Source of the DNA: Flavobacteriales bacterium
Lineage (GTDB): Bacteria > Bacteroidota > Bacteroidia > DT-38
Assembly: GCA_013214205.1 (NCBI GenBank)
Contig: JABSPQ010000095.1
Coordinates: forward strand, 5,886 to 69,885
Reading direction: 5' to 3'
Length of the DNA stretch: 64,000 bases
Part shown: in pieces, positions 43,513 through 63,100 of the stretch
How the letters are laid out: the number at the start of each line of letters is the position of its first letter
Position numbering within the stretch: position 1 is the first letter of the stretch
The notes under the pieces: model-generated
Database searches by the model: none
Told to the model about the DNA's origin: nothing
The model's input: only the letters and a program-made list of their open reading frames with translations
Made by a program: the position numbers and the translations under genes

Positions 43513-46500
43513 TTAGTTACCTGTATAATATACCTTTTTGGTGTTCTGCTTGTTGTTTATGGTTAACCTAACCAAGTAAATTCCTCTTTGAGCACCTTTC
43601 ATTTCTATTCGGTTTGAACCCGAATTAAGACTCATTTCATTTATTTTTCGACCTCTTATATCGTACACCTCAGCCCTACCCCTGTGGTTACTTTTGATGT
43701 TGATGGAGCCTTTTATAACACGAATTGAAAAAGATTCTGAATCTTTGTTTAAAATTCCTGTTACATTATTCACCGTTGCCGAAGCAATGTAATTTGTCCC
43801 ATTATCATCAGTAGCAGTAACAGTATATGTTCCACCGCATAAATTATCTATAACTTCTGATGTAGAACCATTTGACCAAGTATAGCTTATCGGTTCAACT
43901 GCACACCCTAGTTCTGGTTGTATTGAGCCTGCACACAAATCGGAATCATTGACATTAACTACTTCAAGTGTAATAGAATCTTCAACATTTACAGATATGG
44001 TAGTGCTTGCTGAGCAACCATTCGCATCTGTAATGTACACATCGTAATCGGTTGAAACTACTGGACCTACCACATGCGGACCGGCGCTCGGAGTTATAAT
44101 CTCATCACCAGACCACACAAATGTATAAGGGATAGTTCCACCATCTGGCGATGCAGAAATTACTGTTGTCTGTCCAATACATAATTGAGATGAACTAACT
44201 AATGAGTTTATTGTTAACTCACTAGGACTTTGTATAAAATATGTTTTTGTTACCGAACAGCCAGCTTCGTCGTAAAAGGTAGCGTCTATTTGACTACCAC
44301 TTCCTGAGACACTTCCGCATAAACTTGTTGCAGTTAAACTTCCATTGTTTCCACTAGCCCCTTCCCAAGTATGTAGATTGGGATAGTCACCATTTCCATC
44401 TGTAGTACCTCCAGAAAGTTCTACTTCTATAGAACCATCGCAAATTCCATAACAGCTTGGGTTTACCTTACTAATTAAAGTAACTTCCAATGGTGCTACC
44501 TCTAATACACATTCTTCTTGTGTTGCAGTACATCCGGCAGCATCTGTTACAGTTACATAATAACATCCAGTAGCCAAATCATCAGCAAAACTTGTAGTAA
44601 TATTATCATGAGACCATAAGTAGGCATAATCTGGAACACCTCCTGTAACCGAACTGGTTATTGAGCCATCGTCCATATCACAATGTGTTTGAGTAGACAT
44701 TAACTCCAAAATTAGTTCGTCGGCTTCGTAAATTTCATAGGTACCTGTTACCGTACATATATTGGCATCTGTTACAGTTAAATCATAGATTCCAGGACTT
44801 AAGCCGTTGATACTAAAATCAGAATGTGAGCTTGACCAAGTATAAATAGGAATGCCAGTTCCTCCAGTGTGCGGAACTACAATTGATCCGTCGTCGCTAC
44901 CATTACACGAAACACTAATAACTGTTGCTGAAATCGATAATGGCTCTGCTGGCTCAGTAATCTCATCATACAATACAGTATTACAGCCATTAGCGTCTGT
45001 AATAGTAACAGCGTAATTGTTAGCACATAAGTCTGATTTTGTGGTTAATACAATAGATGAAACGCCAAATGTTTCCTGAGATGCATTCCATCTTATATCA
45101 TAAGGTTCTACCCCGCCAACAATTTGTGTACTTGCTGTCCCATCACAATCTCCATAACATAAAATATCTGTTGTGGTTAACAAGGCATTTATTGGCTGCG
45201 CTGCTAAAATGGTTATACTACTATTTGCACAAGTCCTACATTCATTGGCATCGGTAACGCAAAAAACGTAAGAACCGGGTACAACTCCTACAACACTTCT
45301 TAAATCGTAAACGGTATCTGGAGAAGTCCATTTATAGATATATGGCATTGTTCCACCAGTTGGTATTTCGGCATATAAAGTTCCATCGGCAGCGCCATAA
45401 CATGTTATATCAGTACCAGAAGTTCCATTTAATTGAGGTCCCAATATATCGGAGATATTATAACATTCATTTATCTCGCAATTGTTGGCATCTACAATAG
45501 TAACGCAATACATTCCTGCAGAAACGTTGCTAAGTGTGTAGCCAGTTTGTCCATCATTCCAAAGTACACTGTAAATAGGGCCATTACCTCCAGCCGGAGT
45601 AATGGTAATGCTTCCATTGCTGTTACCACACGTGCTAGAAACAAAAGTAGTATCTGCAACAATTAATTCACTTGGCTCTGTGATAGTTTGACATGCCGTT
45701 ACCATGCATAAATTGGCGTCGGTAACGGTAACACAGTATTCCCCTCCACACAATTCAACCGCTGTTGCTGTAGACTGAAAAACGGTGTTCATGTCCCATT
45801 GGTAATATAAACTACCTGTACCTCCAACTGCAATTGCTGTAACCGAACCATCGCAAACTCCTCCCCAATTATTCGAATTGCAGCTAGGATCAACACCGCT
45901 AGTTAAAACATTTAAAAATGTTGGGTTGTAAATTAAGGTATTTATACTAGCCGTACATCCATTGTCGTCGGTAACTGTTACTGTTAGTGGAACAATATTA
46001 CTTCCAATTACATTATCAATACAACTTTCGCTGCCACCATTATTCCATGCATAAGTATAAAAACCAGCAACAGCTGTACCCCCTTGTGCAAAGACACAGG
46101 CCTCCCCCGATGCTTCATTAAAACACAATGGCTGACGTGCATAATTAATTAGTGCTGTTACGGGAGCAGGTTCTGTAATTACACCATTAAACTCTCTGAT
46201 ACAACCTTGGTCGGTTGTAACTGTTACGGTATAACTACCAGCACAAAGGAAAGAAGCCGTTACACCAACTTGGTTCATCGGATCATTCCATTGATATGAA
46301 GCTGGAGACCCTTCTTCTCCTCCCATAAATTCGAAAGTTGCGGTACCATTACAAAGACCATTACACGTCATATCGGTTGTAGTAACACTGCCCGTTAAAG
46401 GTGTTGGGTTATCAAGCGTAACTTCGCAAGAACCTGTGAGCAAACTATTGTCAGTAACAATTACTAAGTATGTACCAGCACATAAGCTTGTTTCTGTATC

Positions 46501-46716
46501 CGTTCCGCCCTCTCCAATTCCGTTAGCAGTTTTCCCTGTGCTCCAAACAATAGAGTAATCTGCATCGTTGCCAGAAATAGATACAGTTGCTACTCCATCG
46601 CAACCATCGGTGCACGACACGTCAGAATCTGTTGTTATGCTACAAGTTGGCGCTTGAGCAAAGATTGAATTAATTGATAAAACAAATATGGCGAGCGTAA
46701 ATAGGCTTAGTTTCAT
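43513..46716 (-). CDS. SprB-repeat cell-surface adhesin-like protein with T9SS (Por) C-terminal sorting domain
   Basis: 1067 aa. Signal peptide MKLSLFTLAIFVLSINSIFAQ. About 12 repeats of C.G..DG...V...GG..PY.Y.W...G. C-terminal ...GIYLVRLTINNKQNTKKVYYTGN tail. Confidence 0.75.
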   Translation of the reverse strand: MKLSLFTLAIFVLSINSIFAQAPTCSITTDSDVSCTDGCDGVATVSISGNDADYSIVWSTGKTANGIGEGGTDTETSLCAGTYLVIVTDNSLLTGSCEVTLDNPTPLTGSVTTTDMTCNGLCNGTATFEFMGGEEGSPASYQWNDPMNQVGVTASFLCAGSYTVTVTTDQGCIREFNGVITEPAPVTALINYARQPLCFNEASGEACVFAQGGTAVAGFYTYAWNNGGSESCIDNVIGSNIVPLTVTVTDDNGCTASINTLIYNPTFLNVLTSGVDPSCNSNNWGGVCDGSVTAIAVGGTGSLYYQWDMNTVFQSTATAVELCGGEYCVTVTDANLCMVTACQTITEPSELIVADTTFVSSTCGNSNGSITITPAGGNGPIYSVLWNDGQTGYTLSNVSAGMYCVTIVDANNCEINECYNISDILGPQLNGTSGTDITCYGAADGTLYAEIPTGGTMPYIYKWTSPDTVYDLRSVVGVVPGSYVFCVTDANECRTCANSSITILAAQPINALLTTTDILCYGDCDGTASTQIVGGVEPYDIRWNASQETFGVSSIVLTTKSDLCANNYAVTITDANGCNTVLYDEITEPAEPLSISATVISVSCNGSDDGSIVVPHTGGTGIPIYTWSSSHSDFSINGLSPGIYDLTVTDANICTVTGTYEIYEADELILELMSTQTHCDMDDGSITSSVTGGVPDYAYLWSHDNITTSFADDLATGCYYVTVTDAAGCTATQEECVLEVAPLEVTLISKVNPSCYGICDGSIEVELSGGTTDGNGDYPNLHTWEGASGNNGSLTATSLCGSVSGSGSQIDATFYDEAGCSVTKTYFIQSPSELTINSLVSSSQLCIGQTTVISASPDGGTIPYTFVWSGDEIITPSAGPHVVGPVVSTDYDVYITDANGCSASTTISVNVEDSITLEVVNVNDSDLCAGSIQPELGCAVEPISYTWSNGSTSEVIDNLCGGTYTVTATDDNGTNYIASATVNNVTGILNKDSESFSIRVIKGSINIKSNHRGRAEVYDIRGRKINEMSLNSGSNRIEMKGAQRGIYLVRLTINNKQNTKKVYYTGN

Positions 46717-46911: not shown

Positions 46912-47361
46912 TTGCTAAAAGGAACTGTTTGGGAAAATTATCAGTTGGTAATTACGCAGTGGCCAATAAGTCCTTCAGTTGCATTTCCTGCTCCATTTTT
47001 ATATCCTAGAAGGTTTCCTCCTTTTACCGATGTTACAGGACAACCTCAAGGGGTTCAGGAGGCATATCATAGAGCAGAGAAAGCAGCCAAGGCATCTTAC
47101 CCATTACAAGCTGGTTTACCCATTCCTCAATCGGGATGTTTGAATGTGACTATGGAAACATATTTCCAAAACCCCAAAGGAACGACTTTAGAAAACACAA
47201 GTTGTATTGGTTGCCACTTTGGTGCATCGGATACGGATTATAGTTGGGCATTGAAACTTAGAACATGGCCGCAGCCTTATAATCAAGGGAGGGTTAATCC
47301 TGAGGATAGTAAAAGAGCTGCTAAGCCTGGGCATGAGGTTCCGGTGACAAAGAAGAAGTAA
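46912..47361 (+). CDS. orphan ORF with a CxxCH motif, possibly a gene remnant
   Basis: 149 aa with no signal peptide. SCIGCHFG is a heme-binding-type motif. It is locally more GC-rich than its surroundings. Confidence 0.3.
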   Translation: MLKGTVWENYQLVITQWPISPSVAFPAPFLYPRRFPPFTDVTGQPQGVQEAYHRAEKAAKASYPLQAGLPIPQSGCLNVTMETYFQNPKGTTLENTSCIGCHFGASDTDYSWALKLRTWPQPYNQGRVNPEDSKRAAKPGHEVPVTKKK

Positions 47362-48518: not shown

Positions 48519-50861
48519 CTAGTTGCCAGATAGAATTACCTTTTGGGAGATGGAGCCAGTTTCTGTTCTTATTTTTAGATAATACAAACCGGGTGTTTCT
48601 GCCATTTCTAAGCTGAAGTGTTTGCCAGAAAGGTTAGTGTAGCTATTAATTAGCCTTCCTGTTACATCAAACAACTGAATGTTTACATGTTGCTGAGGAG
48701 TGCTTAAATCTATATTTAAATCGCCTTGCGTAGGGTTGGGGTAAAGCTTTACGGTGGAAGACAAATTCTGATTTTCGAGACCTGTTGCAATTAGAGATAT
48801 TTCAATTCCGCTTATTGGCGACATAGGCTCGGTCAATTCAATTGTATGTGCATCATCAAAATTATTTTCTCCATAATAGTACGTTGGATCAAAATTATCT
48901 GCATCGCTACCAAGCGCTGAGGCTAATAATTTGTAATCATCCAAACAAAGACAGGTTGCGAAGAAATCACCATTGTTGATTAGAATGGTTTGAATGATTT
49001 CTTCAGTGGATGCATCTATAACATAAAGATTACCAGTAGTAAGGGGAGTAGCATCACTTTTTACAATGCCAGTAATAGAATGAGTGCATTTTGCATCTAT
49101 GTCGATTATTTCGACAGTATGTGCGCTACAAGGATCACAATCTGTGCGAATGGTGTATGATCCAATTCCGTATTCTCTATCAGATATACCAAGCAGATTG
49201 TTTGTTTCGCCTATCAATGCCACATCGTTTAAATACCATTGCGGTGAGCAACTTAATGCGTTTGAATCTGCATTGATTAAAACTAGATTGTCATCGCACA
49301 AACCACCTAGAGAAACAGTGGTAATAGGTGTTCCAACCCATGTATTACAATCGTCAAAACAAGTGTTGTCGTTAAGGTCTGTTAGTCCATTATAATCGTC
49401 GTCGATGGCATTGTTGCAAATTTCGTTTAGGGATAGATTAAGAATAAAAACGTCGTGGTCGCCGGCAGATTCTAATATTAAGGGATCTGCACTTGGATCA
49501 AAATCAACTATATTTTTAAATCCTCCTGTCATGTATATATTGGTATTGACCACCATTCCATAGGTATATTCATTTTCTGTTCCTCCAAAAGATTCTGCCC
49601 ATACCAAGTCTCCGTTGGCATCTAATAATTGAATAAAAACGTCATTGCCGCCATTAGAGTTAAGGTACATTGTATCTGGGCCTGGATCGAAATCAGTTGT
49701 GTTTGCAAAATTTCCTGTTACTAGAATCTGGTTGTTGGGAGTAAAAGTGACATTTATTGTTGAGGCCGCAAAAGTTGTACCGCCATTCATAGAAGTTACC
49801 CAAATTAAATTTCCATTCGAATCTAGTTTCTGAATAAAATGTGCTGTTGGTGTAGTTGTAGTAGATTCTAAGATTGCAATTCCTGGATCAAGATCTATAG
49901 TCCCTGTAAAATCTCCGCATACAATTACGTTTCCAGATTGATCAGAAGCGATAGAGGTTCCTTTATTTTCTGTAGTTCCTCCAATGCTATTAACGTATTG
50001 AACATTTCCTGCGGTATCTATTTTGAGTACGAAAGCATCTGTAGATCCAATAGACGTTAAGTCAAATGCTGGATTTAGAGGGGCAAAGCTTGCCGTGTTT
50101 TCAAAGTTTCCTGTTGCATAAATATTGCCGAAATCATCGTAAGTAATGTCGTTTCCAAAATCATTGCCTGTTCCTCCAAAGGAAGTTGCCCAAACAAAAT
50201 TTCCATCGGTGTCTAACTTTTGAATAAAACCATCTGAATTGCCCGCAGATGTTATACTAAAAACTGCTCCCGAAGGATCAAAATCGACAGTATTTTGAAA
50301 TTGTCCTGTTGTATAAATATTTCCTGTTTCGTCTATGGTTAAAGAATATGCTACATTATCTCCTGAGCCAAGTAATGAATGTGCCCAAATGAAATTTCCA
50401 TCAGAATCAAGTTTCTCTATAAAAATATCTCGATTTCCTTGAGAGGTGAAACTGACTTGAGGAGTTGTATTAAATTCTACTGTACCTCGAAAACTACCTG
50501 TTACAATGATGTCTCCATTATGGTCTAACACCAAGTCTCGCATTATGTCTGCTTCAGTGCCTCCAATAGATTTAATCCAGATGAAGTTTCCATCGCTATC
50601 TAATTTAACAATAAACATATCGGAACTTCCTAATGAGGTTTGGTTTGAAACACCTATTTCTGGATCGAAGTCTACTGTTTCTAAATATTTCCCACAGATG
50701 TATAAATTGCCAGAAGGATCTTGTTGCATGGTATAAGCACCGTCTTGCAAGTGATTTCCAATAGACTTGGCCCATTCTAATTCTACACTTTGTGCCAATG
50801 TTGATAGGGTGGTTGAAAGGCTGAATAGAATGGTTATTATGGTAATTAGCAGTGCTCGCAT
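48519..50861 (-). CDS. SBBP beta-propeller-repeat secreted protein with T9SS C-terminal sorting domain
   Basis: 780 aa. Signal peptide, at least 8 repeats of D.DGN..W..S.GG...D....D..GNIY.TG.F..T.DFDP. C-terminal LYPNPTQGDLNIDL...GLYYLKIRTETGSISQKVILSGN. Confidence 0.7.
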   Translation of the reverse strand: MRALLITIITILFSLSTTLSTLAQSVELEWAKSIGNHLQDGAYTMQQDPSGNLYICGKYLETVDFDPEIGVSNQTSLGSSDMFIVKLDSDGNFIWIKSIGGTEADIMRDLVLDHNGDIIVTGSFRGTVEFNTTPQVSFTSQGNRDIFIEKLDSDGNFIWAHSLLGSGDNVAYSLTIDETGNIYTTGQFQNTVDFDPSGAVFSITSAGNSDGFIQKLDTDGNFVWATSFGGTGNDFGNDITYDDFGNIYATGNFENTASFAPLNPAFDLTSIGSTDAFVLKIDTAGNVQYVNSIGGTTENKGTSIASDQSGNVIVCGDFTGTIDLDPGIAILESTTTTPTAHFIQKLDSNGNLIWVTSMNGGTTFAASTINVTFTPNNQILVTGNFANTTDFDPGPDTMYLNSNGGNDVFIQLLDANGDLVWAESFGGTENEYTYGMVVNTNIYMTGGFKNIVDFDPSADPLILESAGDHDVFILNLSLNEICNNAIDDDYNGLTDLNDNTCFDDCNTWVGTPITTVSLGGLCDDNLVLINADSNALSCSPQWYLNDVALIGETNNLLGISDREYGIGSYTIRTDCDPCSAHTVEIIDIDAKCTHSITGIVKSDATPLTTGNLYVIDASTEEIIQTILINNGDFFATCLCLDDYKLLASALGSDADNFDPTYYYGENNFDDAHTIELTEPMSPISGIEISLIATGLENQNLSSTVKLYPNPTQGDLNIDLSTPQQHVNIQLFDVTGRLINSYTNLSGKHFSLEMAETPGLYYLKIRTETGSISQKVILSGN

Positions 50862-52195
50862 TATCTTAAATTATAGGTGATTCCAATTCCAAATTTTAAA
50901 TAATTACTGGATTGAAGTGGATAGTGGGTTTGATTTTCAAGTTGATTTAACATTGTTGAGTATCCCAATTCTGTACTAATTTCTAATTGTGAATTGATTA
51001 AATAATTAATAAAAATCTTGTTTGAGGTGAACCACAACAGCTCGGTAGATTTTTCTTTTGTAGCAACAGCTCCTCTGCTATCGATGTATTGGCCGGTGTG
51101 AAAAACAAATGCAGGAGTAATCTGAAAAGAAAATTTTATAGCAATAATTTTATTTTGGACGATTGGAAACACAAGAGAGATAGGGAGTAATAAAATCTGT
51201 TTAGGTGCATTGATTTGGTTGTTGACTAGATTAGAATCTCTTACTTCAACATCTATACTATCACCAATGTAAACGCGAATGGTGTCGGGAGCAATTCCTC
51301 CAATATAAGAGCTGTGCACTTCAAACTCCTTGGTGGTGTATGTAGTATCTAAATAATATTGGCTCGAAATAGTGGAGTTGTATTTCATCGTTTGGATGCC
51401 TAACCCCACACCAAACTTAGGCATGTGATAGGTGATATTTAGGTTGGATAAGTAAGAGGGATCAACCGTCTGTTCAAAATCAACATCCATAATTGATGAA
51501 GATGCTGACGACAAAGTTGGCATTAAATAAGACGCGCTTAAGTTGAAAGAGAAGTATCTGTCTTTGTTTTTATCGATTGTAATTGTGGTGTCTTGCTGAA
51601 TTAAATCCTGATTCGCAATAGACGAAGGAGCAATTATTTTTGGTTCAGGTGCTATTTTGTTCTTTTTTAAGTTTGCTGTATCAAGCGGTAAGTGTGGTTC
51701 TTCATTGTCTACAATATGTTCTTCTATTGTCGAAGAAGAATCTTTAGTAATACTTGGTGGTCTAGGCTTTTCTGTAGGAGATATTTTCGTTAACAATGGC
51801 TGTAAGGAGGGTGGAGGAGGGATTTCTCTTTCTGCAATAGGAATGTAATCTTCCTTAAAAATAGATTGATAAGACTTTGGTTTATATATGGCAATAGTAT
51901 TTCCTACATATCGGAAGTTGATGTTGTAATTCGATAGCAGTTCTTTGAGAACCTCACGAATCGTAGCATTATGAACATTGATGGATGTTTTTTCTGAAGA
52001 AGGAATTAAACTGCTTTTTATGGAAAGCGATGTTTTTGCAATCTTAGCCATTTCCACTAAAACTTCTTGAACCGATTTGTTCTCTACTCTAAGATCTATT
52101 GTTTTATCAAGAATACTTTCTTGAGCGACTAAACCTGTGATGCTACAAACAAATATTAGGACTGATATAAAAAACGTTAAAAGACCTCTGTTCAT
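50861..52195 (-). CDS. STN (secretin/TonB short N-terminal) domain protein fused to a small C-terminal beta-barrel; outer membrane component of the ECF/FecR module
   Basis: 444 aa. Signal peptide, then STN-like VENKSVQEVLVEMAKIAKTSL...IREVLKELLSNYNINFRYVGNTIAIY. A Pro-rich linker precedes an amphipathic beta-strand C-terminal half. Its TAATG stop overlaps the start of the SBBP gene. Confidence 0.55.
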   Translation of the reverse strand: MNRGLLTFFISVLIFVCSITGLVAQESILDKTIDLRVENKSVQEVLVEMAKIAKTSLSIKSSLIPSSEKTSINVHNATIREVLKELLSNYNINFRYVGNTIAIYKPKSYQSIFKEDYIPIAEREIPPPPSLQPLLTKISPTEKPRPPSITKDSSSTIEEHIVDNEEPHLPLDTANLKKNKIAPEPKIIAPSSIANQDLIQQDTTITIDKNKDRYFSFNLSASYLMPTLSSASSSIMDVDFEQTVDPSYLSNLNITYHMPKFGVGLGIQTMKYNSTISSQYYLDTTYTTKEFEVHSSYIGGIAPDTIRVYIGDSIDVEVRDSNLVNNQINAPKQILLLPISLVFPIVQNKIIAIKFSFQITPAFVFHTGQYIDSRGAVATKEKSTELLWFTSNKIFINYLINSQLEISTELGYSTMLNQLENQTHYPLQSSNYLKFGIGITYNLR

Positions 52196-52209
52196 TTTCT
52201 ACTCTTCCT

Positions 52210-53310
52210 CTAACAACCTTCTCCTGAAATGATCAGTTTGTTTTTTTCTTCTTTAACCTTAAGTCCTAAAGTGATTTCGAAGAGCTCGAAAATTTCTTCT
52301 ATTGATAAGTTATCGTAGCGAGCAGTTATTTGGCAATTACCCAGTTGAGGATCTTCAAACACCAAATTAATCTGGTAATGCAAGTTCAATTGATTAATTA
52401 TTTTTTTCAAAGGCTTATCAACGAAGGTTAAAATTCCGTTGTGCCACGACAGATAGTTTTGATTGTCGTTGGCTGCTTGTACTGCTGTATAATTACCAGT
52501 TTGAAGTGTGCCCTTTTCATCAGCTGTCAATAAAACTTTGTTGGTATCGTCTTTATGGTAAAATTCAACGCTTCCTTCTTTAACAGTTACCACAATAGAA
52601 TCGGGGTTGTTTGCATTTACATTAAATGAAGTACCCTTAACTGCTATTCTGGCATTGCCAACATGAATGATAAATGGTTTTACGTCTGGTTGAACTAGGA
52701 AAAAACCTTCTCCTTCAAATTCTACAATTCTTTCATCAGATGAAAACGAAGGGGGGTAAGTTAGCTTAGATTTGTTATTCAAGATCACGTTTGAACTGTC
52801 GTGCAGTAATACTGAATTTTTTTCTGTTGTGTTGGTATTGATTACAATGTCGTTGGATTGTTCAATAGGATCGGCATGTGCTACTACAACCTTTTGATCT
52901 GAATTATCTTGGAATAAGAAATAAGCTAATCCTAAACCGGCCAATAAAACGGCAGCAATTCTTAAGATGAGTTTATCCGATTTCTTTTCTGCTGCAATCG
53001 GTATAATCTTTTTGTCCTTCGACTTGTCTACGGAAGTTTTAACATAGGTGGAAGGCTTAGCGAAGGGAGGATTGCTTTTGGCTTCATTTCTGATTTTTAG
53101 AAAATCTTTTTTGTATCTATCAGCATCCGATTCTTGATCCCATTCCTTTTTTAGCGCATTAAATTGGAAAATTTTCTTTGCCGAGTCGTAATCATTTTTA
53201 ATGGCAGGGTCGGAAATCATTAATTGATCTAACTCCGCTTTTTGCTCCCTAGTGGCTTCACCTGAAAGGCATGCATATATTAATTCGATATGTTGGTTTG
53301 GGTTACTCAT
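52210..53310 (-). CDS. FecR family anti-sigma factor / transmembrane sensor (FecR + DUF4974)
   Basis: 366 aa with a single TM helix (ILRIAAVLLAGLGLAYFLF). FecR-like periplasmic domain and a C-terminal DUF4974-like ...LKKIINQLNLHYQINLVFED... Confidence 0.7.
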   Translation of the reverse strand: MSNPNQHIELIYACLSGEATREQKAELDQLMISDPAIKNDYDSAKKIFQFNALKKEWDQESDADRYKKDFLKIRNEAKSNPPFAKPSTYVKTSVDKSKDKKIIPIAAEKKSDKLILRIAAVLLAGLGLAYFLFQDNSDQKVVVAHADPIEQSNDIVINTNTTEKNSVLLHDSSNVILNNKSKLTYPPSFSSDERIVEFEGEGFFLVQPDVKPFIIHVGNARIAVKGTSFNVNANNPDSIVVTVKEGSVEFYHKDDTNKVLLTADEKGTLQTGNYTAVQAANDNQNYLSWHNGILTFVDKPLKKIINQLNLHYQINLVFEDPQLGNCQITARYDNLSIEEIFELFEITLGLKVKEEKNKLIISGEGC

Positions 53311-53319
53311 GATTCACAT

Positions 53320-53925
53320 CTAATAAAATGACACACAGATTGGGGTGAGAGATTCAATGAAATCCAATAAAACAATAGATAAAATGATAATTGGCAGAAA
53401 CTCTGTGAGATGAATTTGCATTTTCTGTACCATGGTCATTATGTCATATTTTACTTTTCCAACATTAAGATTAAGTTTGCTCGCAACCTCTTTAGCAGTG
53501 AATCCTTCAAATCTGTTCAGTCTAAAAATTTGTTGACGAAGGTCATCTTCTTCCTGAAGGACTTCTTCCATCTTTAGAATTATTTCCATCTCAGTGGTAA
53601 AATCTGGGGTGAAACAATCTGTTTGGCTGGTCGCTACAAGATCGATTTTATTTGATCGGTGTTTCTCGTCTCTAATATAGTTTAAGCTGTTGCGGTGTAC
53701 TGCGCGTAGAAGATAGCCGAGCACATTGGATTCAATCTCAACCTCGTTTCGCTTTTCCCAAAGTTTAATGATGGTGTGGTGTGCTACTTCTTGTGCACTC
53801 TCTTGATCCTTAATTATTTTTCGGGCTTGCTTGTAAAGTATGGAGAAGTAATTGTCGTAAATGTATATGTACGCCTCTTCGTCATTCTTACGTAGCAATT
53901 CTAGAATATTTACCTTGTTAATCAA
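53320..53925 (-). CDS. ECF (sigma-70 family, group 4) RNA polymerase sigma factor
   Basis: Region 2 ...YIYIYDNYFSILYKQARKII.D...AQEVAHHTIIKLWEKR and a region 4 HTH ...FTAKEVASKLNLNVGKVKYDIMTMVQKM. Confidence 0.7.
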   Translation of the reverse strand: MINKVNILELLRKNDEEAYIYIYDNYFSILYKQARKIIKDQESAQEVAHHTIIKLWEKRNEVEIESNVLGYLLRAVHRNSLNYIRDEKHRSNKIDLVATSQTDCFTPDFTTEMEIILKMEEVLQEEDDLRQQIFRLNRFEGFTAKEVASKLNLNVGKVKYDIMTMVQKMQIHLTEFLPIIILSIVLLDFIESLTPICVSFY

Positions 53926-54198
53926 CTTTTCACCAAAAAATTACGGGCAAATGTACTTGTTATTAAGGTTGTAGGGCCTATTAACTCTGATAATTAGAAT
54001 ATGTTAAGCGAATGGTTTTTATATTGAGAAATGTAAGCTGATCAATATGCAGTGTATCAGTTAATTGTAAGTCGTGTCAGTGTTTTGTTGATAAAAAAGT
54101 GACTTTTTATCGAACTCGGTTGAAGTGCTTTGTGTCATGTATATCAGGTGGGAAAATTAACTTCCATCGATTGAGAAAATTAACACAAACTAGCAGTT

Positions 54199-57100
54199 AT
54201 GAATACAATTATTTCTTCAAATTTTAAGGCTTTCAAATTATTAATCGTGGTGTTGACAGTAATGTTTACGCAAATAATGAGTGTATCTGCTCAGTGCGAC
54301 CCAACTGTTACCAACAATGCAGTACTACTATATGTCAATGATCAACCGCTTACTAGTTCTTTAACGGACGGCTCTTGGTTAGAAAGCTACTACGATTATC
54401 AATTTAATTTCTATCAGGGTGGTGTGCAAGTGGCGTCTCATGAAATGGAGAGAGATGCCGAAGGGAATTTAATTTTATTAAAATATATTGACTTAGAAGG
54501 GATTTTTGTAGATGAAACCTACAATGTGAAAATTGCGATAAAAAATGCTGAAGGTGATAATTGGTCATGCGACGGAGACCTTCGTACGCTTCATCTCATT
54601 AACGATGCACAGGTTTTATATTGCGGCGAACATACGTTGCCAACAAACGTTACCGATAAAACTTGGTTTGCTGATTACGATGGATATCGATTTAACTTTT
54701 ATCAAAATAGCGAACTCGTTGCTTTTCACGAAATGAAAACAGACGAAGAAGGAAAGTTTATTATTGTTCAATATGGCGATATTGATGGATTAAATTTTGG
54801 GCAAACTTATGATGTGGCCATTGCAATTAAGCAAGATGGTGATGAAGCATGGTCGGTCGACGGTGTAAGTTGTTCCGTTACCTTTCCAACATGTTCAGCT
54901 AATAACCCTGCTGTAAATGTATCTACAATCATAGAAGATGCTTCTTGTGAAGAAGCGAGTAATGGAAAAATTGTAGCAACTGTTTCTGGTGGTACATCTC
55001 CTTTTGTGTATGAATGGAGCGATGAGTTAAAACAAACAAATTCAACTGCTGTTGAATTATCAGCCGGAACTTATACGGTAACGGTAACTGATAAGGTAGG
55101 TTGTTCATCGACCCAAACTTCAACTGTAACGCAAAAAGGTGGTGATTATCTCGTTAATGGCGTTGGAACAAGCACTACTTGTCATGGAGGAAATGACGGA
55201 AGTGCCGAAGTTGTAGTAGTGCAATCGGGCGAATCACAAACGCTTACCTGTGTTTGGGGAGAAGAAGCTGGTGTTCAGACAAGTTGCACTGCTACAGGTT
55301 TATCGGCAGGTTCTTATCCTGTAACCGTGGTAAATCAAAATGGTTGCAGTCCTAAATATCAAATTTCGGCTAGTGTGAAAAATGGTAGTGATTACCTTAT
55401 TACAGGTGTCGGAACAAGCACTACCTGTGATGGAGGAAATGATGGAAGCACCGAAGTTGTAGTAGTTCAATCCGAAGAAGAACAAACGCTTACATGTGCG
55501 TGGGGACCAGAAGTTGGAGCTACGGAAAATTGTACTGCTACAGGTTTATCGGCAGGTTCTTATCCTGTAACCGTAGTAAATCAAAATGGTTGCAGTCCTA
55601 AATATCAAATTTCCGCTAGTGTGAAAAATGGTAGTCATTATCTGGTTCAAGGTATTGGAACAAGCACTACTTGTTATGAAGGAAATGACGGAATTGCTGA
55701 AGTTGTAGTAGTACAATCTGAAGAAGAACAAACGCTTACGTGTGCGTGGGGACCAGAAGCTGGTGTTCAAACCAGTTGTACCGCTATTGGTTTATCGGCA
55801 GGTACATATCCTGTAACCGTAACAAATCAAAATGGCTGCAGCCCAACATATCAAATTACGGTTGAGGTGAAAAATGGTGTAAATCCTACAGGTAACTTGG
55901 CTCTGAGTATAATAACAGAAGTTACGAACGGGGTTTGTTCGGAAGAAGGCAATGGGCAAATAGCTACCGAGGTAAATGGTGGTACTACACCTTTTAGCTA
56001 CGCTTGGAGTGATGTCGCAGATCAAACCAGTGCAGTTGCAACAGGATTAGAATCCGGAACATATACGGTTACGGTAACGGATTTAATAGGGTGTTCTACT
56101 TCGAAAAGTGCTTCTGTTTTACAAGAAGGCAGCTCTTTAACAGATGTAGAATTTACTATAAGGAATGTGCAATGTAATGGTACCCTGGGAGCTGCTTTTA
56201 TAGATAAGGTTGTAGGCGGAAATACTTGGCCAACAGGATATTCTTATGCATGGTCTACTGGACAATCTGGTACGCATGCAGATGGCCTTAATATAGTGGA
56301 TGATTTACCTGCAGGAGAATATACAGTAACGGTTACAGATGCTTTGGGTTGTTCAATGGAAGAGACGTTTAGTATTGAAGCAGAGGATTGCGGCTGCGCT
56401 CATATAACTTGGATTAACGCTACTCAAGATGGAAAATGGGAGACAGCATCCAACTGGTCTACTGGAACCGTACCAAGTCCAAAAGATGCAGCCATTTTTA
56501 AAGATGCAACTGAGCAATATCCGTATTCAAATACAGATGCGGTTTTAAGCACCAATACATCTGTAGGACAAATAATAATAGAAGACAGTTACTCAGCTAC
56601 GGTTGATTTAAGTAATACTAATGAAGTGAAGCTTTCAAAACTAGAATTCGAATGTGCAACGGGCGACTTAACCATTAATGGCGGCTCGTTCAAAGCTCCA
56701 AATGATTTGTTCATGGATGGTAATCTATTAGTAGGTTATGCTAGTTACCTTCATGAAAACGGAACACTAAATTTTGTTGGAAATCTTCAGCAAACAATTA
56801 CTTCAATCGATGAAATAATTCTTCATGATTTCATAATCAACAATGAAGAAGGTGCCCTTTTATTAGGCCCAGATTTTATTATAGAAAATAGCCTTGACTT
56901 CCAATCAGGAATTATTTCTAATAGCAACAACCAAATCGTAATATTCGAAGACAATGCTGTTGCCTTAAATGCCTCTAATAACAGTTATGTGGAAGGTAAA
57001 GTCATGAAAACAGGAACCACTGATTTTGAATTTCCTGTAGGAAAAGCTGGAGAATATAGAATGATTGGGATTTCTGCACCTACAGAAAATTCGCACTTTG

Positions 57101-60100
57101 TGGCAGAGTACTTTAAAGGGCCAACACCAGATGTACAAGCAGATAATTTGCTGATGATAAATTACCTTGAATATTGGGAGTTATCGAGACCATTTGGTTT
57201 AGGATCCACTAATATTACTCTTTCATGGAATGAAAATAGTAGACATTTCAATCCGCTAGCAAGCATGGTGGTGGCGCAAGACATAAACAACGAATGGACA
57301 GATAAAGGGAATGGGTACGTTCATTCAAATGACTATGGCTACACTGGTGTAATTACCAGTAATAACGTAATAAGCTTTACCCACAACAAATTTACCATCG
57401 GATATAATGCAATTAAATTAGGATGTGGAACTAGTTCTTTGGCAGCTAATCAAAATATTGATAATTATCCTATTCCGCCAATTGATCCTTTCAACATATC
57501 TCCAGATAATATTGAACCTGATAATACGGCTCCAGTGGCCCCGATTTTATTTATAAAACCAGCAATAAATACAGTCCCTTTAGATCAGATTCTTTTTGAT
57601 GCTCCTTCAATAGCGGCCGCTCAATCAGCTGGTGCTACAGCGGAGCCCACTTATATTATCCCTGTGGCATTTCACTTAATTTATGATGACGATGGTGTAA
57701 GCAGCCCACTTGTAACCAAGGAAAGAATTGATGCTGCAATGAACGTATTGAATGAGGCATTTATAGGACAAGCGTCTATTGCGAATGTCACAGATCATGA
57801 TATGAGAATATCATTCTGTTTGGCGGAGTACGATCCTAATGGGGGTATTATTGATTACGATGGTTGTACAAATAATTATTCAATTCCGGTTTCAGAGGCT
57901 TTATTCTCATTAAGTGGAACAGATATGGTCACAATTGTCAATGCCACCAAACAATGGAGTAACAAAGAATATATGAATATTTATGTAGTAGATGATATTG
58001 TTAGTGATGACGGGCTGTCTATAGCAGGATTTGCAAAGTTACCCAGTGGATTATCTACAATAAATGGATTTGATGGTCTTGTAATGCGAAATAACATGGT
58101 TGGAGACAATGGCTTCTCAGCGATTCCTGCCCCCCCTCATCCATTAAATAATAATTATGACTTAGGACTAACGTTGGTACATGAAGCAGGACACTGGCTG
58201 GGATTGTATCACGTATTTGATCTTTATAACCTCAACCCAGCTAACCAGTGCGAAGATATTTCTTTTAATCAAGAAATATCAGATGCTACATGTAGTCATA
58301 CCGGTGATAGAGTTTGTGATACTCCTCCTATGTTTGGCACAAGCCCAGGAACACCCGTATTATGTAATTGGCTATCTGGAAACGAAAATACATGTATTGA
58401 AAGTGTAACATATGATGGTGTTCTTGAAGATAGAGATGATCCTACGGATAATTATATGTCTTATACCTCTGATCGATACGGAGATGGAGAAGCATGTAAA
58501 TATACATTTAGCGAGGGGCAAGGATTTAGAATGCGTCAACAAATAGGAGCTTATAGAAAGGACCTCGTAGGTACTTCAAACCTTATGTCAAAAATTACAT
58601 GTCCGTTTGATGCAATTATCGATGCTGAATTTACTGCGGACATAACTCAAATATGTATTGGAGAAAGTGTGAACTTTGAAGCAACTCAGCATCAAACTAG
58701 CACTGCAACATATACATGGGATTTTGGTGATGGAAATATTATTTCAGGTACAGGAATTGGTTTTGTAACAGTTAGTCATAATTATACCTTAACGAGTATA
58801 ACAGAAGCCTATACTGTTAGCTTAACAATTTCTGAAGCAGACCTCACTGCCTGGCCTAATTCTTCAACAGAAATAAAGAGTGAATTAACTTATGTGTCTT
58901 TATGTCCAACTATAGCAAGTTCAGAAGGACAATGGTATTTTAATAATGCTTGTGCATTGGATTTTTCTTCCGGGAAACCAGTTGCAAACAATAGTGCATA
59001 CGATACTGACTTAAATCAACCAACGATATACTCGCCATCATACTACCCTTCACTTTCTCAAAGTGATGCCAACGGTCAATTGGTGTTTTATGCTTCAGGA
59101 ATGACTGTATGGAATTCTCAGCACCATGAGGTCGAAACATTTAGTGGTTCGGGTCGAGTTTTATTATCTGTCTTAAAACCAAAGTCGAACCCACTTGATT
59201 TAGATGAATATTATATATTCTATCAAATTGATGGGATCCAAGCTGGTGCTGGGATTTATTATTCTATTTACGATCCCAATACTGATTTTTTATCCACGGG
59301 AACTCAAATAACTGGTCCGGGTGCTCAAAATAACTCACTGCAAACTAATGTAAGCACTTCTATGGAGGTAATACCTCAATGTAATGGAACTGATTATTGG
59401 TTGATATTTTTTGATGAGGCAGAAACTAATTTCTATGTAGGTGGTTTAACAGCAAACGGTGTTCAAACATTCACTTCTAATCCTTCAGGAATCCCCTCAT
59501 TTGGTCAAGATATATTAATAAGGATTAATGCCTCACCATCCGGAGATAAACTAATTATTTCATCCATGTGGTCGCAAACTTTTGGTGCATATTTATATAA
59601 TTTCGACATAGCAACAGGAGAGATTTCTAACGGTTTACAGATTGAAACAATAGGTGTTGAGGCTGCTAGTTTTAGTCCTAATTCTGAAGTGATATATCTT
59701 ATTGTTAAGAATTCTCAACCTACATTACATGTTGGGCTTAAGGCATATGATTTAACTAATCTCGCCAATATTGAAAGTAAACTATTAACCCCTTTTATAC
59801 CATGGGGTGGACCCAATAATCATCCGTGGTATTCGGATCTGCAAATAGGGCCTGATGGGAAAATCTATATCGCTGAATTAGGCGTCGGTAATGTTTTATC
59901 GACTCCCCTTCCTCCCAAAGGCAGGTTTTTATCTGTCATTAATTTCCCAGATGCTTATTCCAATTCTGGCTTTAATAAACGAAGTGTTCCTTTAAAAAGC
60001 CCATCATCAGCTATTAAATGGTCTTATAGACGGTTACCTCGAATAAACCAGGCTAAACCTATTCCAACCCCTGCACCAACTAGCTATGATGTTGTTACGG

Positions 60101-63100
60101 GATCCTCATGTAGGGAAGTTGAATTTTATGCTCCTGAATGTATCAATGTTACTTCATGGGATTTTGGTGATATGTCTAGTCCATCCACCGACACCGATCC
60201 AATACATGTTTTTGCTAATAGTGGTACTTATAATGTAACACTAAATTTTATTAAAAATGGTGCAATTTATTCTATTACTCAAACATATACTTTTGATCCA
60301 GTAATTGCGCCAACAATAACAGGCCCTGGTGCTGCATTGGGTTTGGTTTGCTCTTATGAGCTTGAAGTTCCTGGGCAGTTTTATAGTATCACAGGTAATT
60401 ATTCTGCTTGTAATTGGTCGGGAACTGGAGATGCAAATTCAATAATGGCTAACAATAGCCCAATTGTTGGAGCAAATTGGAATGCTTCACCGAGCTCTGG
60501 TGAGATTTCTGTGAGTTGTGTTGATGAAAATGCTTGTACAGTAAATAGTACCACCGGACCAATTATAATTTCATCTATCGATGGGTCAATTACGAGTTCT
60601 ATTGATCCTAGTTGCACGACTCTTGGTTCTGCTACTGTAACTATTATTGGGGGTGTTTCACCATATGAGGTGGAATGGTCTGGTGGGAATAGTAACAATG
60701 TAGTAGGTTATACATCTAATACTCATTCTGCTTCAGGATTGGCATATAGTCTTACGGGACAATCTGTTGTTGTTGCGGACGATAATAATTGCTTATTTCA
60801 AGACATTATTTACTTCAATAATGTAGGAGCTGTTTCTATTGATCAGGTCTATCTTATAGATCCTTCGTCAATAGGAGGAAGTAATGGGAGTATCGCTTTT
60901 CAATTGGGTTTAGGTAGTGGTGATAATTTTGATATTCAATGGTCTGATGCTTCATTTAACGAAACAGGAGTATTGGAGGGTCCAGTTAATTTAACGGGAT
61001 TGGTTGATGGAATGTACGATGTAACAATCACGAACAATGTTACATCATGTTCTATAGTGCAATCATTTAACTTGTTAGAACCAATAGACTGTTTTGCCTC
61101 TGCGAATATTATAACTCTATCAACAGCTTTGGTAGATCCATCTTGTATGCTTTCTGGTGATGGGACCATTGAAATAACAGCTACAGGAGGAACTTTACCT
61201 TATGATTACAATTGGTCTAATGGGGAAACAACAGAAGATTTAGTTGACCTTTCAGGAGGAGATTACACCATTCAAGTAACAGATGGCAATGGTTGTATTA
61301 CAAGTGCATTGTTCACCTTGACGGAGCCAGCAGAACTTGCTGTGTCAGGAACACCTGTTAATCTCACATGCTTTAGTTTGAGTAATGGAAGCATTGATTT
61401 AACTATTTCAGGAGGAGCTTTACCTTATGATTACGATTGGTCTAATGGAGAAACAACAGAAGACTTAGTTAATCTTTCAGGAGGGGATTACACCATTGAA
61501 GCAACAGATGACAATGGTTGTATCACTACCTCATTATTTACTTTAATAGAACCGTTAGAACTAACTTTGTTGGGTACTATAAATGATCCCTCATGCTTCG
61601 GTTTGAGTGATGGAAGCATTGATCTAACTATTTCAGGAGGAACTTTACCTTATGATTACAATTGGTTTAACGGAGAAACCTCAGAAGACTTAGTTAATCT
61701 TACAGGGGGAGATTATACCATTCAAGTAACAGATGGTAATGGTTGTATTACATCTTCATTGTATACCTTGACAGATCCAACTGAATTAGTTTTATCAGGT
61801 ATTCCTGTAAACCCTTCCTGTAACCTATTTTGCGGCGGCGCAATAGGGGATGGATCAATAGATTTAACCGTTATTGGCGGAACTGCGCCATATAATTATT
61901 TATGGTCTAATGCAGCTACATCTGAGGACTTAACCTCGCTTTCAGCTGGCCCATACGAAGTTACCGTTACCGATGATAACAATTGCGAAAGCACTACCTC
62001 AGCCACTCTTTTCAGTGGAAATCTAAATGTTGAACTTCAAGATTTATCTGTAGGCGCAACATGTGCAAACGCTAGCGGTGAGATACAAACTTCGGTTACA
62101 AGTGTTTTCTACTCTAATAATTGTGAACTCACTGAATCGGTTTGTTCTGGATTAGGTACAAATGAAATGTTCATAGATATACCTGTTAGCGGTTTAACTG
62201 GTGCAACTATTACTAATAATACGGTGGCAGCACTTTGTATTGATGGTTTCCAAGCAACAGAAGGCCATATGAGTATACAATTATATCCACCAGGAGCGGA
62301 TTTAACTGAGATGAAGTTGGTCACTGTTCTAGGAATTATGGGATCACCGTGGGGGCAATCAGAATACAATGACGTCTGTTTTAAAAATGGAAATTACACC
62401 GAAATTAGAGATGATATAAGTCCTTTTAATGGAACTTATTACGCCCCATTGGATCATAGCGATTTTGCCGGAATGGGGATGTCTGTTGATGGAACTTGGA
62501 AGGTGAGATTTGGATGGATATGTAATGATGAAGGAACTGGTACTTTCTTACCATGGACACTTGGGGAAAACGCAATTAGTCTACATATAAATGAAGTATC
62601 ACCAAACATCACCTACAACTGGGAAAGCACCACAACTAGTGTTCCATCGGGTGCCAATCCTTCTAATTTGTTAGCAGGTACATATACAGTTACTGTTGAT
62701 GACGGTGGCGCTTGTCCTCCTGTAGAAACCGTCGAAATTCTTAATGACTTAGGAATATGGGACGTGTACACCGAGGGTGAGTACTGCGATGGATTTGGAG
62801 GCTCCGTAGAATTTTATCATACAAATAGTAATCTTCTTACCTATGAATATAATATGGATGGAATTTTACAATCATCTACGGAAGATTGGCATTATCCATT
62901 AACACCAGGTATATATGGAATATCGGTTACTGATATAGATGGCTGTGAAAGGGTTTATAACGAAGTTATAACTGGTTCATCTATTGATTGTGCGACACAG
63001 CAATGCCATGCCAATTTGGGAATCACATCAATTAGTGAAAGTCCTGGTTCTACTTGTGCTTTGCTTGATGCTGATCAGGCGTTTACCCCATGTCCTGGAA

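Follow-up and report, generated by a model that had tools for sequence, protein, structure and literature searches.

By what route could a signal reach a FecR-type anti-sigma factor when the next gene does not encode a TonB-dependent transporter? To our knowledge, the only well-understood input into FecR-controlled extracytoplasmic function (ECF) sigma factors is a SusC-like TonB-dependent transducer, which ties sensing to nutrient import. The question is raised by four consecutive minus-strand genes within a 64,000-nucleotide stretch of contig JABSPQ010000095.1 from an uncultured Flavobacteriales bacterium (the whole stretch is referred to below as the window, and its numbering is used throughout). 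These genes encode an ECF sigma factor (53320..53925; 201 aa, TTG start), a FecR-type anti-sigma factor (52210..53310; 366 aa), a 444-aa protein with a secretin/TonB N-terminal (STN) domain (50861-52195), and a 780-aa protein with an SBBP beta-propeller and a sorting domain for secretion by the type IX system (T9SS; 48519-50861). The sigma and FecR genes are separated by 9 nt and the FecR and STN genes by 14 nt, while the third and fourth genes overlap at TAATG. An earlier interpretation made from the letters and open reading frames (ORFs) of this DNA, here called the sequence-only reading, had described these four ORFs, spacers and overlap exactly where we located them, and its domain identities were matched call by call in Pfam and NCBIfam (Sigma70_r2/r4_2, FecR and FecR_C, STN, SBBP, and a type-A T9SS sorting domain). 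A scan of the coding strand revealed no terminator-like hairpin within the four-gene unit, although the combined sigma-70 and terminator scan gave counts no higher than in shuffled sequence and is uninformative for Bacteroidota promoters.

The sequence-only reading had further proposed that an ECF/FecR pair is here served by a small STN barrel in place of the usual transducer of about 1000 aa of the SusC type, and that this barrel is tied to a T9SS cargo. Fold prediction and comparative genomics agree with that proposal, and we consider it highly probable that the sigma/FecR/STN-barrel unit serves signalling and is functionally coupled to its own T9SS cargo. That all four genes form a single cassette acting as a transporter-less cell-surface-signalling device across the envelope is a wider claim, for and against which we find the case evenly balanced.

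The 444-aa protein is central to this interpretation. Its NCBI record reads only 'MAG: STN domain-containing protein' (MAG, metagenome-assembled genome), STN was the sole Pfam domain detected in it, and no Pfam or NCBIfam model spans its full length. An AlphaFold2 (AF2) model, built from an alignment with 13 relatives, resolved four parts. The N-terminus carries a signal peptide, read from the sequence (52121..52195, aa 1-25, ending in ...VAQ), of which residues 3-21 were modelled as a helix and whose 'AQ' end is conserved throughout the family. It is followed by the STN signalling domain (51872..52102, aa 32-108, by Pfam and AF2), folded over residues 32-104 with a predicted local distance difference test (pLDDT) score of 72-88. 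A disordered linker (51581..51871, aa 109-205) of about 15% proline comes next, with pLDDT values below 50 for residues 120-208. The remainder (50864..51580, aa 206-444) adopts the fold of an 8-stranded OmpA/OprF-like outer-membrane beta-barrel, the all-beta domain being modelled over residues 210-444 at pLDDT 80-95. In the relative P0060, AF2 likewise predicted a barrel preceded by a low-confidence linker of similar length. The barrel assignment is further in line with OMP_b-brl_2 matches in 6 of 14 family members (Pfam; best 8e-7) and with a terminal Phe, the usual beta-signal of outer-membrane proteins, in 48 of 60. Lack of both an STN match and a barrel prediction had been named beforehand as the outcome that would overturn the proposal; instead, the domain was found and the barrel predicted.

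Equally telling is what this protein does not resemble. Among the 14 family members no match to Plug or TonB_dep_Rec was obtained at E<=1, and none to PorP_SprF at that threshold or in NCBIfam. The window protein has no recognisable TonB box, nor did we find a conserved TonB-box-like strand after the STN domain. It also lacks a Secretin domain; only its STN region weakly resembles the N-termini of type III secretion system (T3SS) secretins and PilQ, and a secretin identity was ruled out because no Secretin_N repeats and Secretin domain follow the STN domain. Since an STN domain, a linker and an 8-stranded fold are thus combined without a plug, a 22-stranded barrel or similarity to PorP_SprF or secretins, the protein amounts to a small barrel that does not transport, with an STN domain hung beneath it. 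In Bacteroidales-type members (L011-L065; e.g. aa 114-192 of P0060) the linker contains 3 to 6 'DT[ILVM]' motifs, compared with about one in the rest of the protein. These motifs resemble TonB boxes of the form DTxxV, lie in the region that AF2 leaves disordered, and are absent from the window protein. The idea that the DT[IV] repeats fold onto a conserved hairpin was dropped as unsupported, given the pLDDT below 50 of the P0060 linker.

Relatives were hard to reach. When homologues were sought by word-indexed search, the single protein retrieved only 1 match and alignment A1 only 3; an exhaustive HMMER search was needed, which at E<=1e-3 gave 152 matches, with 151 cluster representatives retrieved. 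About 50 of these 151 share the signal peptide, STN domain, linker and homologous barrel (as judged with a hidden Markov model, HMM, of the barrel region). They make up essentially the entire 400-500 aa length class, and the length of about 440 aa is conserved in them. Identity to the window protein is only 14-29%. A first genome scan with a Flavobacteriales-type pattern (A2) found no relative and exact-sequence contig look-ups for P0001 and P0003 gave no match, while a second scan with a Bacteroidales-type pattern (A3) yielded 53 loci. These lie in 53 GTDB species-representative genomes (Lentimicrobiaceae, rumen Bacteroidales, Candidatus Limimorpha and others), all of them MAGs, and were annotated with custom HMMs, corrected by Pfam.

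In the GTDB loci the gene neighbourhood proved strikingly constant. A sigma gene lies upstream in 45 of the 53 and a FecR gene is present in 47, within 250 nt of the barrel gene in 44. Directly downstream of the barrel gene, 49 of the 50 assessable loci encode a protein with a type-A C-terminal sorting domain (CTD); the only exception, L023, has an ABC-F gene there, and the three further loci end at a contig edge. The gap between barrel and cargo genes is at most 4 nt, or the genes overlap, in 38 loci, and two tandem cargos of about 1000 aa each occur in 36. In most rumen-type cassettes (L025-L062) the first of these is a beta-helix protein, which the gene of the second overlaps or abuts; this second cargo is a type-A protein of about 980 aa that has a CarboxypepD_reg domain at the N-terminus and the CTD at the other end.

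Outside this set, two cassettes in one Flavobacteriales-type MAG (L007 and L008) both run from sigma through FecR and barrel to a Por_Secre_tail protein, with a barrel/cargo overlap of 4 nt in L008, and the four loci L066-L069 from one metagenome all have the sigma-FecR-barrel order. In L066 the barrel gene is followed by one for an SBBP protein whose contig ends before the C-terminus, and in L068 by one for a SprB-repeat CTD protein. Bacteroidales-type loci supply a cargo with beta-helix, CarboxypepD_reg and CTD after sigma-FecR-barrel (L011) and one with an FG-GAP propeller and CTD (L004). The CTD was confirmed in the fourth-gene proteins of L007, L008, L011 and L068. At the locus of the closest relative (L001), FecR and barrel genes are followed by a gene for a signal peptide and leucine-rich repeat (LRR)-like protein that is broken by an IS3-type transposase pair (L001:2290-3980); the fourth cassette gene is inactivated there by the IS3 element.

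In total, the order sigma-FecR-barrel-cargo was found in more than 60 uncultured Bacteroidota genomes of two orders. The barrel proteins with genomic context fall into 13 lineages (single-linkage at 35% identity), at least 10 of which have a CTD cargo after the barrel. Because at least 10 lineages with barrel identities below 35% retain the arrangement, the count is no artefact of close relatives. The synteny check to which the sequence-only reading had submitted its four-gene unit thus came out in its favour.

The cargo itself has the hallmarks of a type-A substrate, with a Sec signal peptide at the N-terminus (MRALLITIITILFSLSTTLSTLAQ, read from the sequence) and a type-A sorting domain at the C-terminus (48522..48746, aa 706-780; Por_Secre_tail 1.5e-13; TIGR04183 46.7 bits against a cutoff of 23). 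No type-B CTD family was among its NCBIfam matches, and related cargos are likewise type A. We therefore predict the 780-aa protein to be exported via Sec and the T9SS. The signal peptide (aa 1-23) and an SBBP beta-propeller reaching to about aa 470 occupy 49452..50861 (Pfam SBBP; NCBIfam SBBP propeller 8e-32 over aa 23-450). Between propeller and CTD lies a module common to other cassettes (48747..49427, aa 479-705, by BLASTP), composed of an acidic Cys/Asp motif EICNNAIDDDYNGLTDLNDNTC, an Ig-like segment and a CarboxypepD_reg-like domain. BLASTP aligned aa 479-780 of the window cargo with the entire 394-aa cargo of L007 (6e-18) and with the cargo of L008 (6e-19), EICNNAIDDDYNGLTDLNDNTC included, and matches to acid_disulf_rpt and CarboxypepD_reg/SdrD_B were found in relatives' cargos. 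Since this C-terminal module of about 300 aa is common to the window, L007 and L008 proteins, the SBBP propeller is an N-terminal head added to a common stalk. Across cassettes the N-terminal modules vary widely (SBBP propeller in the window and L066, and elsewhere FG-GAP propeller, NosD-like beta-helix, SprB repeats or LRR), and the C-terminal end is more uniform, usually consisting of a CarboxypepD_reg/SdrD_B-like domain followed by the type-A CTD.

On the cytoplasmic side, the sigma protein contains sigma-2 and sigma-4 regions (Sigma70_r2 and Sigma70_r4_2 in Pfam) and scored 53.5 bits against TIGR02937 (cutoff 42.9), while its 83.9 bits against the Bacteroides-type model TIGR02985 stay below the 126-bit cutoff. 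The FecR protein consists of an N-terminal cytoplasmic part, one hydrophobic transmembrane (TM) segment read from the sequence (about aa 114-133, nt 52912-52971), and a periplasmic part with a FecR domain (aa 156-249, nt 52564-52845; Pfam 4e-15) and an STN-like FecR_C domain (aa 294-361, nt 52228-52431; Pfam 1e-12). This periplasmic part is homologous to the solved Parabacteroides anti-sigma factors 4m0h and 4m0n (E ~1e-23).

Some features of these two proteins and of the upstream region deserve mention in their own right. Beyond region 4 the sigma factor carries a strongly hydrophobic C-terminal tail of 12-25 aa, seen in the window as HLTEFLPIIILSIVLLDFIESLTPICVSFY (53320-53409, the last ~30 codons) and kept in the homologues at L007:6354-6923, L008:377-955 and L011:754-1332. 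A tail of this kind is not usual among soluble sigma factors and might serve as a tether, either to the membrane or to FecR. In the Flavobacteriales-type subgroup, FecR ends in G-E/Q-G-C (...ISGEGC in the window, 52210-52227; likewise in L007 and L008), and the conserved terminal Cys may have a role in C-terminal processing by proteases or in a disulfide. The mature STN-barrel protein appears to be Cys-free. Upstream of the sigma start codon, at a distance of 30 nt, a candidate -7 box of the Bacteroidota sigma-A type (TACATTTG, 53948..53955 on the minus strand) was recognised by its match to the consensus TAnnTTTG only; in most rumen-type loci the sigma gene is preceded by such a box at a distance of about 51 nt. 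This candidate box would fit basal expression of the whole unit. About 17 rumen Bacteroidales species (L025-L062) also have an identical 32-mer, TTTCGGACTGCAAAAATACAACTTTTTTCAAT, at a variable distance of 160-310 nt upstream of the sigma gene; it might mark where a conserved RNA or tRNA ends, act as a terminator, or be a regulatory site.

How these parts might work together can be sketched from three precedents. In the absence of signal, the STN domain of Pseudomonas aeruginosa FoxA binds to FoxR and shields it against Prc-dependent proteolysis (PMC11637429), an anti-sigma factor can be linked to an 8-stranded barrel via a disordered region in Dma1 (PMC10927553), and a T9SS cargo, PorA, can be a signalling ligand (PMC12152298). 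In the scheme that we propose, a promoter of the housekeeping type would give the unit basal transcription, and the tethered STN domain would dock on FecR_C by beta-sheet pairing, as PupB does on PupR and FoxA on FoxR. The sigma factor would stay sequestered because this STN cap would shield the FecR C-terminus from periplasmic proteases. The cargo would be exported by the T9SS and held at the cell surface beside the co-translated barrel, with its variable N-terminal module (here the SBBP propeller) supplying ligand or surface specificity. An event at the barrel-cargo pair, be it engagement of a ligand or substrate, loss or shedding of the pair, or failed delivery of the cargo, would then remove the cap, upon which FecR would be degraded by regulated proteolysis and the sigma factor released, probably amplifying its own operon and further targets.

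We hold the full chain, with the cargo as surface partner or sensor, to be plausible but slightly short of an even chance. Synteny and translational coupling favour a physical partnership of barrel and cargo, without proving it. Still somewhat more tentative is the specific form in which surface sensing is TonB-independent and a T9SS-exported protein with an exchangeable head (propeller, beta-helix or repeat) acts as sensor above a plug-less 8-stranded barrel whose tethered STN domain caps FecR.

Several observations weigh against this scheme. Its main weakness is that an 8-stranded barrel with neither plug nor channel, in a protein without a recognisable TonB box, offers no established route by which an extracellular signal could reach the STN domain. 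The most conserved segment of the barrel ('DT..YY..GDT..YIxDSxYxP') may line the barrel lumen and not form a binding site. Furthermore, type-A cargos are normally fixed to anionic lipopolysaccharide, which makes a protein anchor unnecessary. The tightest linkage in the cassette is that between barrel and cargo, since loci L026-L028 retain this pair without sigma or FecR genes nearby, while in L056, L058 and L059 the FecR and barrel genes are separated by an insertion encoding a giant BspA-type LRR protein or a 591-aa protein without Pfam match (L056:1614-6569, L058:3-6059, L059:4189-5964). As barrel and cargo are thus bound more tightly to each other than the barrel is to sigma and FecR, the primary job of the barrel could concern the cargo itself. 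A bipartite-motif search upstream of the sigma genes identified no ECF-type promoter, returning only phylogenetically inherited blocks and the sigma-A-type -7 box. Finally, the STN-FecR and barrel-cargo contacts are both inferred from homology and gene order.

These weaknesses leave room for other explanations. One of them, which we judge unlikely but worth serious attention, takes the cassette for an envelope-state sensor, a two-piece version of Dma1 that reports outer-membrane integrity, vesiculation or intermembrane distance through its grip on FecR, with the cargo as output only. It would account for the disordered tether and for the membership of the barrel in the Pfam family of the Dma1 barrel, OMP_b-brl_2 (PMC10927553), as well as for the wide variation of cargo N-terminal modules, which is what interchangeable outputs would display, and it does not need an 8-stranded barrel to relay ligand binding, for which no obvious means exists. 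However, a gene that is only an output has no need to overlap the stop codon of the barrel gene, as happens in 38 of 53 species, or to adjoin that gene still where sigma and FecR are missing (L026-L028). The CarboxypepD_reg-like domain that is usually kept, and that would be membrane-proximal after CTD removal, moreover hints at a conserved contact. Improbable in our view is a monitor of T9SS traffic, in which unexported periplasmic cargo or its CTD would bind the STN domain, linker or FecR and so sense whether type IX secretion functions, with expression tuned to match. The CTD of PorA does activate PorXY-SigP from the periplasm in Porphyromonas gingivalis (PMC12152298), co-translation would bring barrel protein and cargo to the periplasm together, and the near-constant company of a type-A CTD protein (49 of 50 assessable GTDB loci) suits such a role. 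Yet we saw no sign of CTD contact with STN or FecR, no T9SS component genes adjoin the cassette in the window, and a reporter of secretion alone would have no use for the large variable N-terminal modules, PorA being small.

The same barrel-cargo linkage (49 of 50) could also mean that the barrel handles cargo and does not signal at all, serving as a PorP/SprF-like anchor or export helper whose STN domain docks on T9SS or other periplasmic machinery, so that adjacency to sigma and FecR would reflect transcriptional control only. STN domains indeed mediate secretin and other periplasmic contacts too (PMC11637429), and the weak PilQ and T3SS secretin matches could be taken in this sense. Against it stand the missing PorP_SprF similarity, a cargo CTD of type A and not type B, and a FecR with STN-like FecR_C directly preceding the barrel gene in 44 of 53 loci and throughout the Flavobacteriales-type set, FecR_C/STN pairing being the established function of this domain pair; we regard this explanation as quite improbable. 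Scarcely credible, lastly, is a degenerate or truncated TonB-dependent transducer, or a chance adjacency of unrelated genes. Bacteroidota ECF-FecR pairs do usually precede SusC-like transducers with an STN extension, but this explanation was ruled out by the missing Plug/TonB_dep_Rec match, the complete 8-stranded barrel with its C-terminal beta-signal, a length of about 440 aa in some 50 representatives, and the gene order in at least 10 deep lineages.

Beside the cassette, the window contains further surface-protein genes. An ORF that is divergent from the sigma gene (54199-64000, plus strand) exceeds 3266 aa and runs off the window end. Its product has a signal peptide, SprB repeats in large number, a Peptidase_M43 domain (HEAGHWLGLYH), PKD and DUF7619, and is probably a giant T9SS surface protein, judging by these domains. 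We rejected it as a part of the cassette, since neither L007 and L008 nor the GTDB loci have such a gene as a conserved neighbour. The hint in the sequence-only reading that it might be a target of the sigma factor likewise found no support, as nothing marks the gene as one. On the other side, the gene at 43513-46716 (minus strand) encodes 1067 aa, among them 7 SprB repeats and a Por_Secre_tail of type A, so that two type-A T9SS cargo genes and the giant SprB-repeat gene lie within about 20 kb. Between this SprB cargo gene and a gene for an MBL-fold protein, a 149-aa ORF with TTG start (46912-47361, plus strand) ends with a CxxCH-like 'CIGCHF'; it may be spurious, or else code for part of a haem-binding protein.

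A Bacteroidota genome encodes about 20 ECF sigma factors on average (PMC7826278). In the cassette, the sigma/FecR/STN logic has been rebuilt around a non-transporting barrel and a type IX-exported protein, and this arrangement has been kept across Flavobacteriales-type and Bacteroidales/Lentimicrobiaceae/rumen lineages. In the searchable literature we found no description of it and no paper that combines STN or cell-surface signalling (CSS) with T9SS; on that ground, it looks like a new way for Bacteroidota to link the cell surface with gene expression. If the cargo is the sensor head, its propeller, beta-helix and repeat modules would amount to a library of surface receptors read by dedicated sigma factors, and surface signalling would proceed without TonB-dependent transporter or ligand import, coupling the type IX pathway directly to ECF sigma control. 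If it instead reports on the state of envelope or secretion, the cassette would correspond to the recently described Dma anti-sigma factors, with two proteins in place of one, and would follow PorA as the second case in which T9SS cargo is linked to gene regulation. In either case it provides a testable handle on how STN controls FecR without TonB-driven transport, an open point in CSS models (PMC11637429).

At its sigma-FecR-STN end the cassette works like FecIRA/SusC-type signalling, with which it has in common a FecI-like ECF sigma factor, a single-pass FecR anti-sigma factor with periplasmic FecR and C-terminal STN-like FecR_C domains, and, with an unchanged gene order, an outer-membrane protein whose gene comes right after that of FecR and whose mature N-terminus is an STN domain. 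In contrast to that class, the window partner has only 444 aa, with an 8-stranded barrel on a disordered tether of about 95 aa and neither plug nor 22-stranded barrel, and a T9SS cargo gene stands where SusD and enzyme genes would be. Lacking these parts and a recognisable TonB box, the window barrel cannot import a ligand, and the cassette falls outside the FecIRA/SusC class because its defining TonB-dependent transporter is absent. VreA-VreI-VreR (PUMA3) of P. aeruginosa is likewise a non-canonical CSS system with a small, non-transporting STN 'receptor', and its regulon of secreted proteins and secretion-system components, in place of iron uptake, can be likened to the output imagined here (PMC2729926). 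However, VreA is a soluble periplasmic protein that joins STN to a TolA/TonB-like C-terminal domain and has no barrel, whereas the window protein ends in a transmembrane beta-barrel. VreAIR is moreover proteobacterial, has the order receptor-sigma-regulator, and governs a TPS system and secretion-system components, not a T9SS cargo.

The involvement of a T9SS protein has two parallels. In the PorA-PorXY-SigP pathway of P. gingivalis (PMC12152298, PMC7712824) a signalling chain with an ECF sigma factor at its end likewise involves a T9SS CTD protein, but the route is the two-component pair PorY/PorX without FecR, STN or barrel, and PorA does not share a cassette with the sigma factor. PorP/SprF-like barrels resemble the window protein in that the gene of a small outer-membrane barrel adjoins that of its cognate T9SS cargo (PMC9143113). 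The sequence-only reading had drawn on this analogy, which fails on the lack of PorP_SprF similarity, on the OmpA-like 8-stranded fold, and on a cargo CTD of type A and not of the PorP-anchored type B; PorP-like proteins have neither STN domains nor sigma/anti-sigma partners. Dma1 (PMC10927553) offers a parallel in architecture, as an equally Bacteroidota-restricted anti-sigma pathway linked to an 8-stranded OMP_b-brl_2 barrel via a long disordered periplasmic segment. Unlike the cassette, Dma1 is a single polypeptide of anti-sigma domain, TM helix, disordered region and barrel, without FecR or STN and paired with an ECF21 sigma factor, whereas the 444-aa protein has no anti-sigma domain or inner-membrane helix and starts with a cleavable signal peptide and STN. 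The bridge between sigma factor and outer membrane is thus split over two proteins in the window, presumably joined by the contact between FecR_C and STN, and a T9SS cargo has been added to it.

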